This document shows, piece after piece, positions 23,502 to 25,805 of a DNA stretch of 64,000 nucleotides (within the stretch, counting starts at the first letter, position 1; each line of letters begins with the position of its first letter). Source of the DNA: Candidatus Nomurabacteria bacterium (GTDB taxonomy: Bacteria > Patescibacteriota > Minisyncoccia > Phycocordibacterales > UBA9973); assembly GCA_943354905.1 (NCBI GenBank), contig CALRDL010000002.1, positions 6,478 to 70,477 of the forward strand, written 5' to 3'. The notes under the pieces are model-generated. The model was not told the origin of the DNA, did no database searches, and saw only the letters and a program-made list of their open reading frames with translations. Both the position numbers and the translations under genes were made by a program.

Positions 23502-25805
23502 TTATTCGAAATGAAATTCTCCGACTTTTTGGTGGACTTTAGATTTCAAGAGGGGATAGTTTGTGAGTTCTGGGTCTTCGGATATGATTCGTATTGCTTC
23601 TGTTCTAGCAGCTTCTACCATTTTAATATTTCTTATGGCTTCCATCCCCAGGTCGGTGATGCCCCATTGTTTGGTTCCTCCGAGTTCTCCTGCGCCGCGA
23701 AGTGTGAGGTCGAGTTCGGCTAACTCAAAACCATTTTGAGCTGTTTTTAGAGCTTTGAGTCGAGAAATAGTCTTTTCACTTTTAGCTTCGGCAAATATAT
23801 AACAATAGGCTTGATGTGAACTACGAATGACTCGACCGCGGAGTTGGTGGAGTTGGGCTAGTCCAAAACGTTCGGCTCCTTCGATGATGATGACAGTAGC
23901 GTTTGGAACATTTACTCCGACTTCGACGACAGAGGTCGCACAGAGAATTTGAATTTTTCCTAGAGTAAATTCTTGCATAACTTTTTCTTTTTCGATTTTA
24001 CTAAGCTTGCTATGAAGTATGCCTATCTCGTATTCTGGAAAGATTTCTTTTTTTAAACGTTTGGCTTCTGAGGTTACTGATTTCATTTCCAAAGCCGAGC
24101 TAGAATCTTTTTTTATAGGGTCGCTGTCTCCGCGTGCTCGCGGAGCGCTCCCTCTCGGCGCGTCCGCCTGCGAGAGGCCCTCTAAAAAAAATCCTGGCTC
24201 GGCTTTTTCGTTTGCTTCAAATATTCTCGGACAGATGACATAGAGCTGTCTACCATTTTTCATTTCAATTTTTATTTTCTCATAAGTATTTTCGCGTTTA
24301 TCCGGAGTTATTATTTCGGTGATTATTTTTTTTCTACCAACTGGCATTTCATCTAAGAGTGAAAGGTCTAGGTCCCCATAGATGGTGAGAGCGAGTGTTC
24401 TCGGTATTGGTGTAGCCGTCATAGATAACAAGTGAGGGGCGCTGAAGTTTCCATTTATATCTTTGCGGATGAGTTTTCTTCGCTGAGCTGTTCCAAATCT
24501 ATGTTGCTCGTCAATAACCACCAAGGCTAGGTTTTTAAATTTTACTGTTTTTTGGATGAGAGAATGAGTGCCGATCAATATTGGTATTTCTCCATTGGCT
24601 ACCCATTTTAAAAGTTGGGTACGAGAAATTGTGGTCCAACTTTCTGGATTAGATTTCGATGGAAACTTTCGACAGCCACTACCCGTAATGAGTCCTATGT
24701 TGATCGGAAGATGGGAAAAATATTTTATAAAAGATTCAAAATGTTGGGTGGCGAGTATTTCTGTGGGAGCCATATATCCCACTTGTAAGTTACCAAAATT
24801 TTTACCATACGGTCTTTGTGTGACGGTTGCATGGCTCGCCGTGGCAGCTACTGCGGTCTTACCACTACCGACATCTCCCTCGAGTAATCGTGACATAGGA
24901 AAATTTCTAGCCATATCTTCGAGAATAGTTTCGATGGATTTTTCTTGGGATTTGGTAGCTTGGAATGGAAATCTTTTTAAAAATTCTGCTGTATTTTTCT
25001 GATCTGGTTTTATTTGAAAAGATTTATTTTTTCTATATTCAAGTTTGTCGTGTTGACGTTCGAGCTGGATACAAAAAACTTCTTCAAAGGCAAACCTCTT
25101 ACGAGCTGATTGCATATCATTTTTATTTTTTGGTGTATGGATCCAGATCAAGGCTGTCTTTAAAGTCGGTAAATGATATTTTTTCAAAATGTCACTCGGA
25201 ATATAATCTGCGATATTGTCTAAAGTTTTATCTCGCAATATTTTTTCGATAGTGTGATAAAACCATTTTGAAGTTATGCCACGAGTTTCATTATAGATTG
25301 GATACGAGAAACCCTCCGAATTTTTCTCCCCCTGCGAAGGGGGAGTGCCCTTAGGGCGAGGGGGTCTAAACAAAGAGTTGTGAGAGTCGATCGGCATATT
25401 TGGAATTTTTTCAAATTCTGGATTGGCTAGATAATTTCCGTTTTTGCTTTCGGTAACTTTTCCTGTGAGTTTGACGGTGTCACCATCGTGGAGCATTTTG
25501 GCTAGATAGGCTTGGTTGAACCAGATTATTTTTATTTTTCCAGAAAAGTCTTCGATCCACCCTTCCGCCATGGGTATTTTAGAATGAAATCCTTTTCTAG
25601 TTTTTAGACCAGAGACTTTTCCATAGATTGTAGCTACCTCACCGACATTTAATTCTGTAATTTTTGATACCCTGCTGACGTCACTATATCTGATAGGGAA
25701 ATGATATAAGAGGTCGGCTACAGAGAAAATATTTAGCCGATGTAAGGCCTTTTTCTGATTTTCATCCATTCGGAATTTTGTTTCCAATTTCTCGGAGAGT
25801 TCCAT
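23502..25805 (-). CDS. recG: ATP-dependent DNA helicase RecG
   Basis: 767 aa with the wedge domain followed by SF2 helicase motifs (GDVGSGKT, DEQHRFG, the TATPIPRT-type motif, and QLRGRVIR). It carries two GC-rich in-frame insertions. Confidence 0.85.
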   Translation of the reverse strand: MELSEKLETKFRMDENQKKALHRLNIFSVADLLYHFPIRYSDVSRVSKITELNVGEVATIYGKVSGLKTRKGFHSKIPMAEGWIEDFSGKIKIIWFNQAYLAKMLHDGDTVKLTGKVTESKNGNYLANPEFEKIPNMPIDSHNSLFRPPRPKGTPPSQGEKNSEGFSYPIYNETRGITSKWFYHTIEKILRDKTLDNIADYIPSDILKKYHLPTLKTALIWIHTPKNKNDMQSARKRFAFEEVFCIQLERQHDKLEYRKNKSFQIKPDQKNTAEFLKRFPFQATKSQEKSIETILEDMARNFPMSRLLEGDVGSGKTAVAATASHATVTQRPYGKNFGNLQVGYMAPTEILATQHFESFIKYFSHLPINIGLITGSGCRKFPSKSNPESWTTISRTQLLKWVANGEIPILIGTHSLIQKTVKFKNLALVVIDEQHRFGTAQRRKLIRKDINGNFSAPHLLSMTATPIPRTLALTIYGDLDLSLLDEMPVGRKKIITEIITPDKRENTYEKIKIEMKNGRQLYVICPRIFEANEKAEPGFFLEGLSQADAPRGSAPRARGDSDPIKKDSSSALEMKSVTSEAKRLKKEIFPEYEIGILHSKLSKIEKEKVMQEFTLGKIQILCATSVVEVGVNVPNATVIIIEGAERFGLAQLHQLRGRVIRSSHQAYCYIFAEAKSEKTISRLKALKTAQNGFELAELDLTLRGAGELGGTKQWGITDLGMEAIRNIKMVEAARTEAIRIISEDPELTNYPLLKSKVHQKVGEFHFE

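Follow-up and report, generated by a model that had tools for sequence, protein, structure and literature searches.

Rickettsia palindromic elements, RPE-1 to RPE-10, were described by Ogata et al. (2000, 2002) and are summarised in PMC10969869 and PMC6649704. They are dispersed palindromic repeats of approximately 100-150 bp. Here we analyse two palindromic segments, site A (A1 family) and site B (B1 family), in the recG gene of a 64-kb stretch of DNA, which as a whole is referred to as the window. B1, with 114 nt, is likewise a dispersed palindromic repeat. In both systems the copies lie in frame in unrelated housekeeping genes of small-genome bacteria, carry a conserved peptide, and occur in coding as well as non-coding DNA. 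For neither of them is a transposase known, and in both the insertions are apparently compatible with protein function. A preliminary description of the locus had pointed to a resemblance with RPEs, which is apt; membership of the RPE sequence families is not claimed. The CPR/Paceibacteria phylum is unrelated, and B1 is not known to be related in sequence to the RPEs. Furthermore, B1 is GC-rich in an AT-rich genome and has a predicted three-way junction with a conserved asymmetric core. Compensatory changes actively preserve its pairing, in contrast to RPEs, whose repeat identity is described as being lost over time (PMC6649704). A further difference is that many families use the same protein loop, with both orientations occurring.

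Bacterial MITEs with in-frame fusions (intragenic ERIC, Coxiella QMITE1, Anabaena MITEs; PMC10969869, PMC5896051) are short, non-autonomous inverted-repeat elements with read-through in the host ORF, as appears to be the case here. In contrast to these, no target-site duplication or parent insertion sequence was found for B1 in the searches given below, and its arms, unlike conserved terminal inverted repeats, vary between sites in their outer parts, with only approximately 12 nt beside the core being conserved. Approximately 80% of the B1 copies are intragenic, whereas an intragenic position is the exception among bacterial MITEs. REP/BIME sequences, mobilised by RAYT (Y1/HUH) transposases (PMC3733652, PMC12306157), share with B1 the GC-rich hairpins, the conserved structure and the likely recognition of a DNA hairpin. 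REPs are however 20-40 bp long, extragenic and carry a terminal GTAG or CGTC, whereas B1 is longer, mostly intragenic and in frame.

Fungal mitochondrial GC clusters and double-hairpin elements, together with the coding palindromes of Nematomorpha mitochondria (PMC6649704), resemble B1 in being GC-rich or perfect palindromes, in coding sequence, in AT-rich genomes, with double hairpins and with upkeep at the DNA level, as inferred for B1. The fungal mitochondrial elements are mostly intergenic or located in rRNA. The Nematomorpha repeats are organellar and do not form a dispersed family built on a common core, whereas B1 is a chromosomal family that has one. The inverted terminal repeat of AAV is T-shaped, with two small internal palindromes and a long stem, has two orientations, and is the replication origin at a linear end with an HUH Rep protein. 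The analogy is one of shape only, as B1 is internal and chromosomal and is not known to have a Rep. In the searched literature, which left out most subscription journals, no account of elements of this kind from CPR was found.

The recG inserts and the orthologous loops

The host gene was identified as recG by the Pfam domains RecG_wedge, DEAD, Helicase_C and RecG_dom3_C, and by a match to the T. maritima RecG structure 1GM5 (E=5e-118). A protein in public data (P0001) is 100% identical to it, and its nearest relatives are labelled Nomurabacteria/Paceibacterota RecG. Judged by the names on these closest homologues, the host is likely a Paceibacteria (CPR) bacterium. The features of the locus are collected in Table 1.

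Table 1. Positions in the window of recG, the two inserted elements and their parts.
Feature	Position	Strand	Evidence
recG, ATP-dependent DNA helicase, 767 aa, host of both inserts	23502-25805	minus	ORF, Pfam and structure match
Site-B element, B1 family, 114 nt (38 codons), imperfect palindrome, predicted three-way junction	24092-24205	minus	DNA fold, family profile, orthologue absence
Site-B outer stem, 5' arm on the gene strand (AAGCCGAGCCAGGATTTTTTTTA...)	24183-24205	minus	Pairs with 24092-24120
Site-B hairpin 1, gene strand CCTCTCGCAGGCGGACGCGCCGAGAGG	24151-24177	minus	Fold and shuffle test
Site-B hairpin 2, gene strand CTCCGCGAGCACGCGGAG	24128-24145	minus	Fold and shuffle test
Site-B outer stem, 3' arm (...CCCTATAAAAAAAGATTCTAGCTCGGCTT)	24092-24120	minus	Fold and covariation
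Site-A element, A1 family, approximately 52 nt, closing stem CCCTC/GAGGG around two hairpins	25312-25363	minus	Fold z -2.7, orthologue absence
Site-A main hairpin, gene strand CTCCCCCTTCGCAGGGGGAG, perfect 8-bp stem	25326-25345	minus	Fold and shuffle test
Site-A small hairpin, GCCCTAAGGGC, 4-bp stem	25347-25357	minus	Fold; variable or missing in other copies

The GC content is 0.35 for the whole window, 0.38 for the rest of recG, 0.65 for the site-A insert and 0.59 for the 114-nt site-B insert (0.71 in its core). At site A, CTCCCCCTGCGAAGGGGGAG (25326-25345) has a perfect stem of 8 bp and a 4-nt loop, and GCCCTTAGGGC is found at 25347-25357. At site B, CTCCGCGTGCTCGCGGAG (24128-24145) is a perfect 7-bp stem, also with a 4-nt loop, and a palindrome CCTCTCG...CGAGAGG covers 24151-24177. 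The recG palindromes exceed chance expectation: in 100 dinucleotide-preserving shuffles of the window there was no recurrence of any of the three palindromes. Perfect GC-rich hairpins with a stem of at least 8 bp number only 4 in the 64 kb. The 114-nt site-B DNA folds with -39.3 kcal/mol (z = -8.0), and none out of 200 shuffles did better; the site-A fold is weaker (z = -2.7) and was equalled by 3 of 200 shuffles.

Read on the gene strand, both inserts translate, to ...EGLSQADAPRGSAPRARGDSDP... and ...FRPPRPKGTPPSQGEK.... The site-A insert peptide is PPRPKGTPPSQGEKNSEG (aa 148-165), C-terminal to the last strand of the wedge domain. The site-B insert peptide is KAEPGFFLEGLSQADAPRGSAPRARGDSDPIKKDSSSAL (aa 534-572), in the stretch that links the end of helicase domain 1 to the first helix of domain 2.

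The window RecG was compared with 200 close orthologues, 68-81% identical, i.e. the 120 closest proteins and 80 genomic orthologues. Short AT-rich loops are found at both positions in most of the 120 proteins and in 62 of the 80 genomic orthologues, reading DTLFKKDGxxNTGFSY at site A and IFEPDPEKELALNVKSA at site B. The recG segments are therefore insertions and not an ancestral linker. Counted by element, the one at site B is missing in 62/80 genomic orthologues and the one at site A in 58/81 RecG sequences (the 80 orthologues and the window). The remaining orthologues carry many different palindromic inserts at the two loops, always in frame.

Empty sites have a GC content of 0.35 and 0.43 and are unstructured (median z -0.65 and +0.47). 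Where a site is filled, the GC content is high and the median fold z is -3.2 at site A (15 orthologues) and -5.9 at site B (19 orthologues). The inserts of the latter 19 fall into at least 8 sequence families. Both loops are hot spots for many palindrome families, in tandem or nested. The site-B insert of L030 is related to the site-A insert of L011, which speaks for mobility in further families too. The length of the 120 closest proteins ranges from 718 to 805 aa, with the differences nearly all at the same few loops.

Insert-bearing RecGs have a similarity of 0.817 among themselves and 0.818 to empty ones, and each A1 and B1 occurrence stands apart in a neighbour-joining tree. RecGs filled at site B, by whichever family, share the flanks IFEAEE...LEMK, whereas empty sites differ (IFEPDPEKELALNVK). 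Such shared flanks are not predicted by simple independent insertion into an empty allele, and they suggest turnover at an already expanded site or recombinational spread of a filled patch.

Both inserts are gaps in the alignment to 1GM5, and both lie in coil with pLDDT <50 in an AlphaFold2 model of RecG made with 64 close homologues. The overall quality of this model is low (mean pLDDT 59, pTM 0.36), and surface exposure of the inserts can therefore not be demonstrated from it.

Most of what the preliminary description had claimed for these segments held. The GC-rich palindromes inside recG were confirmed in place, the quoted peptides are those of the gene strand, and the orthologue alignment supported segments absent from typical RecG and inserted in frame. 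A surface-loop position, which it had also considered, fits with respect to loops, as both inserts fall in alignment gaps and low-pLDDT coil, but is not shown with respect to the surface. Its bounds for site B, 24113-24178, were too narrow. An imperfect outer stem of approximately 24 bp, which it had missed, encloses both hairpins, and the unit is therefore 24092-24205.

Dispersal, reading frames and pairing of the two families

A B1-family profile searched with nhmmer matches 24093-24200 (E=2e-26). The family layout is an outer stem of approximately 24 bp, variable in sequence yet complementary, around a conserved asymmetric core of approximately 63 nt. This core contains the two GC-rich hairpins as well as CAGCG motifs that are unpaired and conserved. 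Between sites the arms are conserved only over approximately 12 nt beside the core (..TTTCTTTnnGGGG); the outer parts differ and are complementary within each copy.

Copies of B1 were counted by a pattern scan for a 33-nt core over metagenome contigs, which are contig pieces and not whole genomes. The scan gave at least 125 copies on at least 120 contigs. Host ORFs were identified by Pfam and by mapping of the element flanks. The host genes span 16 or more unrelated families, and some copies are intergenic (a relative at L033:13440-13620 is an example). Among the hosts are RecG, UvrD/PcrA, UvrB, UvrC, TGT, TsaD, MnmA, the CCA-adding enzyme and a pseudouridine synthase. Four tRNA synthetases are hosts as well, including an IleRS-type class I synthetase, LeuRS and TyrRS. 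Further hosts are PGK, phosphoglucomutase, peptide deformylase (Def) and PAP2. Copies in ORFs of at least 200 aa form 20 site clusters. Two copies are present within one gene in L093 (TGT) and in L102 and L110 (UvrD), and one 122-kb contig carries two genes with one copy each (L095, L107).

At one homologous site both orientations are found, with forward/reverse counts of 22/11 in UvrD, 2/13 in TGT, 10/2 in TsaD and 6/2 in RecG. In ORFs of at least 300 aa all 81 copies use just two of the six frames, with host Pfam domains flanking the insert on both sides. Frame F1 reads G[VL]SQADGPRGSAPRARGDSDP (45 copies) and frame R1 reads GSLSPRARGALPLGxSACETP (36 copies); the two peptides are unrelated to each other. 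The remaining four frames were seen in short ORFs only. That the element is translated and not removed is inferred from sequence alone.

The window contains one copy of each family, and no further B1 copy was found in it with the nhmmer family profile. Over the 80 genomic recG loci this profile returned recG copies only, plus one weak match at L053. A B1 peptide profile against a set of 5.8 billion proteins gave one 46-aa match from 52 candidates, the query being too short for the word index.

The A1 family occupies recG site A also in L001, L002, L008, L016, L027, L049 and L056, and is found away from this site in L033, L087 and L145. In L016 the hairpin loop is the reverse complement (GCGA, not TCGC), and in L049 a second hairpin is nested within the loop. 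Outside recG the hairpin family was seen in a UPF0102 gene, a KsgA-type gene and non-coding DNA of relatives. The site-A insert belongs to a second dispersed family, separate from B1.

The preliminary description had compared the segments with small palindromic elements inserted into ORFs. The occurrence of B1 in frame in many families, and of A1 in the UPF0102 and KsgA-type genes, is in favour of this. It had also suggested a tie to a GC-rich repeat family of the window, which is not supported. These repeats (41464-41669 and 43844-44049) have no BLAST or nhmmer similarity to either recG insert, and are the inverted ends, approximately 200 nt each, of an HTH+Fic cassette.

For the analysis of pairing, 104 distinct B1 copies were used in a gap-free structural alignment. 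Compensatory changes are present in 30 of 39 pairs, and 90.5% of cells are paired, compared to 72% for shuffled data and 42-52% after sliding of the partners. The observed number of double changes is 824 against 277±17 expected, and none of 500 shuffles reached the observed number. Between closely related copies, double changes occur at 3.6 times the expectation under independence. In the outer stem all 24 pairs show compensatory changes, with 85% of cells paired (104 copies). The stem of hairpin 1 is fixed by the search pattern; its inner pair (columns 43-48) is CG in 58 copies, UA in 44 and GC in 2, with none broken. The 3' arm of hairpin 2 lies outside the pattern. In this hairpin 98.8% of cells are paired, and columns 69-74 are GC in 60 copies, CG in 25, UA in 15 and AU in 3, with 1 broken.

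G·U pairs make up 25.6% of the non-Watson-Crick cells, where 24.4% is expected. The B1 fold is kept by compensatory change without a preference for G·U. Because G·U pairs are not in excess, the pairing constraint looks to be at the level of DNA, which again is inferred from sequence alone.

The 3'-arm bulge has a fixed position relative to the core in both orientations, and therefore arms and core travel as one unit. An inversion of the core only, between fixed arms, was considered and rejected: the proximal and distal stem registers are offset by one base, and whichever way round the element lies in its host, this offset stays in place with respect to the core.

As a separate observation, one match (CCAGAAGAATT, L001) is suggestive of outer arms being inverted duplications of host flanks. 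The arms mostly follow the element consensus, and such an origin is not established.

Origin of the elements and alternative explanations

Insertion relative to orthologues, dispersal, both orientations, the use of two frames, pairing kept by compensatory change and the hot-spot nature of the two recG loops are shown. We consider it very likely, with a probability of roughly 0.85, that each of the two segments represents a copy of a small, non-autonomous mobile element of palindromic structure, RPE-like, in genes of Paceibacteria (CPR). The mover and the rule for target choice are unknown. The elements would colonise protein-coding genes of Paceibacteria, and retention would need an in-frame insertion without stop codon, a permissive loop and a tolerated frame. 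B1 and A1 would then be translated as surface loops rich in Gly, Ser, Pro, Arg and Asp. Translation is inferred from the conservation of frame, without proteomic or transcript data. A mobilising enzyme may recognise the DNA hairpin or cruciform; alternatively, template-switch 'quasipalindrome' correction may keep the arms matched.

Evidence for the act of transposition itself was looked for in several ways. Neither a target-site duplication nor flanking direct repeats were seen at the recG site-B copies of 10 orthologues, the only site used. A TnpA of the IS200/IS605 type gave no match in 2.26 Mb of loci, which is only a weak negative, and this search showed no RAYT-like hit either. No transposase or autonomous partner was found in the loci searched, and no B1 copies were found on IMG/VR viral contigs.

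The alternative that survives best, although unlikely, is a domesticated module, where the inserted Arg/Gly/Ser/Pro-rich peptide or the DNA structure is selected for a host function in nucleic-acid enzymes, e.g. as an additional nucleic-acid-binding loop. Many hosts do act on DNA or tRNA (UvrD, RecG, UvrB, UvrC, TGT, TsaD, MnmA, the CCA-adding enzyme and tRNA synthetases), and the peptide frames are strictly limited to two. However, PGK, phosphoglucomutase, peptide deformylase and PAP2 are also hosts, and the two frames give unrelated peptides. Additionally, close orthologues lack the insert, and different families replace each other at one loop.

Local generation, where template-switching during replication gives rise to hairpin-forming insertions anew at fragile loops of every gene, without any movement of elements, is considered very improbable. 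It agrees with pairing that is Watson-Crick only without tolerance of G·U, with the excess of paired double changes, with many unrelated palindromes sharing two loops, and with outer arms that are site-specific yet complementary. However, it cannot account for the recurrence, across many genes, of one asymmetric 63-nt core whose unpaired bases are conserved, and this shared core refutes it as the sole origin. Arms and core moreover travel as one unit, although template switching may still maintain or extend the arms.

An element acting at the level of RNA, either in mRNA regulation or stability or as a segment cut out or bypassed by the ribosome, is also held to be very unlikely. Bypassed segments are known from the GC-rich 'byp' elements of Magnusiomyces mitochondria and from the gap in gene 60 of phage T4; a review is available (PMC5009743). 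The strong covariation and the GC-rich hairpins in an AT-rich genome speak for such an element. However, if the segment were removed or bypassed, neither its frame nor its stop codons would be constrained, whereas all 81 copies in long ORFs are open, stay in frame with the host and use only 2 of the 6 frames. Both orientations relative to the mRNA occur, G·U is not favoured, and there is no T-run 3' of the recG hairpins on the gene strand. A search of 23900-25600 against Rfam 15 (E<=1) left both inserts without a match, its only hit, Ysr141 at 24774-24943 (E 0.81), being located between them.

An ancestral linker, i.e. Pro/Arg/Gly-rich segments old in the RecG clade, GC-rich by coincidence and absent elsewhere by deletion, could be read from the shared IFEAEE...LEMK flanks as perhaps one old expansion, but is all but excluded by a 63-nt core that recurs in 16 or more unrelated gene families as well as in intergenic DNA and takes both orientations at one RecG site, by the phylogenetic intermixing of filled and empty RecGs, and by empty loops so conserved in length and sequence that repeated losses would need to be exact.

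Implications for CPR genomes

Within the mobile-element reading, a bolder version is possible, though less likely than not, in which the element is not just tolerated. Even among orthologous copies, the three-way-junction fold remains strictly Watson-Crick. This fold may be the form recognised by an unidentified structure-specific enzyme, e.g. of the HUH/Y1 or resolvase type, or the element may be actively re-symmetrised in place through template-switch correction. If true, this would be a new class of hairpin/cruciform-mobilised element in CPR, specifically colonising permissive coding loops and recolonising occupied ones, and it would be a major source of protein length variation in reduced genomes.

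In-frame coding palindromes have so far been treated as a peculiarity of Rickettsia, and an unrelated, more elaborate family is now found in CPR. In genomes that are small, AT-rich and dense in genes, and where intergenic space is therefore scarce, selfish intragenic palindromes apparently arise repeatedly. The insertion of elements accounts for much of the length variation among near-identical CPR RecG orthologues, and in UvrD. For annotators and structure predictors this means that GC-rich low-complexity loops in CPR proteins may be mobile DNA. Furthermore, the orthologous filled and empty sites, the two orientations, and the nested and tandem cases constitute a natural experiment on the upkeep of palindromes and on the tolerance of proteins to loop insertion.

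Palindromic insertions in recG

The recG gene lies in an AT-rich window (35% GC), and the nearest homologues of its product are named Candidatus Nomurabacteria or Paceibacterota, which identifies the host as a bacterium of the Candidate Phyla Radiation (CPR). A preliminary description made from the sequence alone had reported GC-rich palindromes at two sites in this gene. Their positions and translations held as stated, none of them recurred in shuffled sequence, and only four perfect GC-rich hairpins with a stem of ≥8 bp exist in the whole 64 kb. At the larger segment (site B) a further imperfect stem encloses both hairpins, and the unit was therefore defined as the 114 nt listed in the table. 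As single-stranded DNA this unit is predicted to fold into a three-way junction (-39.3 kcal/mol, z = -8.0).

Features of the window and related loci (L-numbers denote DNA loci of relatives)
Feature	Position	Strand	Description
recG	23502-25805	minus	767 aa; Pfam wedge, DEAD, Helicase_C, RecG_dom3_C
Site-B element (family B1)	24092-24205	minus	114 nt = 38 codons; 59% GC vs 38% in remaining recG
Site-A element (family A1)	25312-25363	minus	65% GC; smaller double hairpin, 5-bp closing stem, z = -2.7
A1 outside recG	L145		inside UPF0102 domain gene
A1 outside recG	L087		near 3' end of KsgA-type gene
A1 outside recG	L033:21340-21400		non-coding DNA
tRNA-Ile	20587-20661		anticodon TAT (UAU)
GC-rich non-coding stretch	27350-27870		between two minus-strand ORFs; z -7.5 over 110 nt
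ORF	27881-28489	minus	202 aa; Pro/Glu/Ser-rich; no Pfam match
Large serine recombinase ORF	39621-41198	plus	Resolvase+Recombinase+Zn_ribbon
Multi-hairpin palindrome	40928-41002		75 nt; in frame in C-terminal part of the recombinase ORF; z -5.7
tRNA-Ser(ACT)	41146-41233	minus	ARAGORN
tRNA-Ser(GCT)	41334-41423		ARAGORN
Inverted repeats, ~200 nt	41464-41669 and 43844-44049		99% complementary over 89 nt
HTH_3 gene	41735-41947		between the inverted repeats
Fic/DOC gene	42116-43576		between the inverted repeats

In an alignment to the T. maritima RecG structure 1GM5 (E=5e-118) both sites fall in gaps, site B where the second helicase domain starts (flanked by IEES and DKLNVKS) and site A after the final strand of the wedge. 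Lengths among the 120 nearest RecG proteins (74-81% identical) are 718-805 aa, and nearly all of the differences reside in a few loops, chiefly sites A and B.

For comparison at the DNA level, 80 recG orthologues from species-representative genomes were used, giving 81 sequences with the window. Site A is short and AT-rich in 58 of the 81, the empty site (without a palindromic insert) reading ...ctt ttt aaa aaa gac ggt ... aat act ggt ttt tct tat. Site B is short in 62 sequences of the 80-orthologue set and when empty reads att ttt gaa cct gat cca gaa aaa gaa tta gca ctc aat gta aaa. In the remaining genes the sites are occupied by GC-rich inserts that are in frame without exception and represent many unrelated sequences; every inserted segment at either site is palindromic. 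The median fold z of filled sites is -5.9 for B (n=19) and -3.2 for A (n=15); that of empty sites is +0.5 and -0.65, respectively. Inserts also occur in tandem (L007 at site B; L002, L008 and L056 at site A), nested, with a second hairpin within the A1 hairpin loop (L049), or as A1 with an inverted loop (L016). Insertion would have been refuted if relatives encoded equivalent residues in AT-rich DNA, and this was not the case. Both recG segments are insertions relative to the orthologues.

Members of the A1 family follow the pattern agaCCCCCTC-[variable small hairpin]-CTCCCCCTTCGCAGGGGGAG-...GAGGG and occupy the same RecG loop in 8 of 81 sequences. Other palindrome families also move between sites, one case being the site-B insert of L030, a relative of the site-A insert of L011.

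The remaining RecG sequence carries no phylogenetic signal for insert presence, identities being 0.817 for filled-filled, 0.818 for filled-empty and 0.821 for empty-empty pairs; the nearest neighbour of a filled RecG is itself filled in 6/19 cases (4.3 expected). Each A1 and B1 occurrence is separate in a neighbour-joining tree, which is poorly resolved. All genes with a filled site B, whatever the family, share the flanks IFEAEE...LEMK instead of IFEPDPEKELALNVK, and simple independent insertion does not account for this. Turnover of elements at a once-expanded loop is one possibility; spread of the filled patch between genomes by recombination is another.

Perfect GC-rich hairpins were also seen at other recG positions in relatives (L013:11105, L045:2111, L050:10541, L069:2975, L074:10985, L061:11071, L064:6354, L068:3871), so that RecG has more than two permissive loops. 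About one third of the perfect GC-rich hairpins in the 80 loci lie in recG, but only ~13% of their DNA.

Dispersal, reading frame and pairing of the B1 family

The B1 insert is common to six genomic recG orthologues. Metagenome contigs were scanned with the B1 core TCTCGCAGNNNGACGNNCCGAGAGNNAGCGCTC, and at least 125 copies were found on at least 120 contigs. A search of viral contigs found none. Host genes were assigned by flank mapping and Pfam on the host ORFs. UvrD/PcrA is the commonest host, at several sites; the others are TGT, TsaD, RecG, MnmA, an IleRS-type class I synthetase, LeuRS, TyrRS, UvrB, UvrC, the CCA-adding enzyme, a pseudouridine synthase, phosphoglycerate kinase, phosphoglucomutase, peptide deformylase and a PAP2 gene (at its 3' end). 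Copies in ORFs of ≥200 aa number 97 and form 20 site clusters. Two copies can share one gene (TGT in L093; UvrD in L102 and L110, those in L110 oppositely oriented), and two different genes of a single 122-kb contig (L095, L107) each carry a copy. About 20 copies in short ORFs are likely intergenic, and a diverged intergenic relative is located at L033:13440-13620.

Both orientations occur at four homologous sites, with forward/reverse counts of 22/11 in UvrD, 2/13 in TGT, 10/2 in TsaD and 6/2 at RecG site B. This explains three RecG variants (P0031, P0050, P0112) whose loop is SLSPDASGALTLGPSACERPRK, the reverse-complement reading of the window element. None of the six frames of the core is closed by a stop codon. 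Nevertheless every one of the 81 copies located in an ORF of ≥300 aa is read in one of two frames, F1 (45 copies, peptide G[VL]SQADGPRGSAPRARGDSDP) or R1 (36 copies, GSLSPRARGALPLGxSACETP), and the other four are found in short ORFs only. Since an excised or bypassed element would escape such a two-frame constraint, we infer, from frame conservation alone, that B1 is translated.

Two side observations concern hosts. Some B1-carrying UvrD genes also contain an intein (Intein_splicing domain; L087:3588-6755, L160:67-3291), and the gene therefore hosts two kinds of in-frame selfish insert. In the TGT gene L121:625-1353, B1 is in the non-standard frame R3 and the ORF stops ~100 nt past the element, possibly a truncating wrong-frame insertion or an assembly error.

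A gap-free alignment of 104 distinct copies (118 columns) gives a consensus fold of three helices, an outer stem, hairpin 1 and hairpin 2; the 3' arm of hairpin 2 was outside the search pattern. The 24-bp outer stem varies in sequence by site while complementarity is kept, with compensatory changes in 24/24 pairs, and hairpins 1 and 2 are paired in 99.4% and 98.8%. Over the whole fold the paired fraction of cells is 90.5%; column shuffles give 72% and slid partners 42-52%. Double changes number 824 versus 277±17 expected (0/500 shuffles as high), and among closely related copies paired positions change jointly at 3.6x the expectation under independence. RNA-level selection normally favours G·U as an intermediate. 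The G·U share of non-Watson-Crick cells is 25.6%, against 24.4% by chance, and this lack of excess, like the occurrence of both orientations, indicates that DNA complementarity is what is constrained.

Conservation extends to unpaired bases, notably ...GGCAGCG... and ...ACAGCGACC.... An outer-stem register shift holds its position relative to the core in either host orientation, so that arms and core behave as one unit; a 'flip-flop' of the core alone between the arms was rejected on the same ground.

Other repeats and structured regions of the window

The preliminary description had also suggested a possible link between the inserts and other GC-rich repeats of the window. This part was not supported; the repeats are unrelated in sequence to the recG inserts. 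Those repeats are the ~200-nt inverted repeats, which form the ends of an HTH_3+Fic/DOC cassette adjoining tRNA-Ser(GCT) and a serine recombinase; the region probably represents an integrated cassette. Neither ARAGORN tRNA-Ser call was reported by the Rfam tRNA model at gathering score. The tRNA-Ile has an anticodon uncommon in bacteria.

The palindrome in the recombinase ORF, with a closing stem CGCGGGGTT/GAACCCCGCG around three hairpins, shares the architecture of the recG inserts, but its insertion status is not established. The GC-rich non-coding stretch contains a perfect 13-bp hairpin (27634-27662), another hairpin (27579-27609) and long-range complementarity of ~27519-27541 with 27774-27797. 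An Rfam scan of it gave no family even at E<=1; an unknown RNA and a large palindromic element are both possible. The stem AACGGCTCAAA/TTTGAGCCGTT of the 27579-27609 hairpin, in non-coding DNA, recurs at 28259-28290, in frame within the Pro/Glu/Ser-rich ORF (...TAQTPVFEPL...), and may represent a further family of small coding palindromes in this genome.

Related elements and proposed mechanism

Among known elements the Rickettsia palindromic elements come closest. They are ~150-bp palindromes found in frame in unrelated metabolic genes, each with a conserved peptide (PMC10969869), and have been described as among the very few stable structures within coding sequence (PMC6649704). The CPR families have the same defining behaviour, and the preliminary interpretation of small, Rickettsia-like palindromes inserted in frame is supported. 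They differ in host phylum, in being GC-rich within an AT-rich genome, in their three-way junction with a conserved asymmetric core, and in the reuse of the same loops by many families. Pairing is maintained here, whereas the Rickettsia elements are described as losing repeat identity over time (PMC6649704). No Rfam family matches the recG inserts, and no report of coding palindromes in CPR bacteria was found in the literature searched, the coverage of which was incomplete.

Three other known classes do not match these elements. The conserved frame speaks against bypass elements, and the variable arms and the lack of a duplication at the one site examined (recG site B) speak against classical MITEs. 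An intragenic location and a length of 114 nt set the elements apart from REP/RAYT.

The recG segments are copies of dispersed palindromic families, inserted in frame and with DNA pairing maintained. Neither a transposase (limited search for an IS200/IS605-type TnpA in 2.26 Mb of loci) nor a target duplication (recG site B) nor an autonomous partner was found. We propose that the elements are non-autonomous and mobilised in trans, the form recognised probably being a DNA hairpin or cruciform. Arm complementarity may be kept through selection on transposition competence, or through template-switch correction of quasipalindromes, as cited for coding palindromes (PMC6649704). Survival of insertions would be limited to permissive loops and to the two tolerated frames, which would give a stop-free Gly/Ser/Pro/Arg/Asp-rich and presumably disordered peptide.
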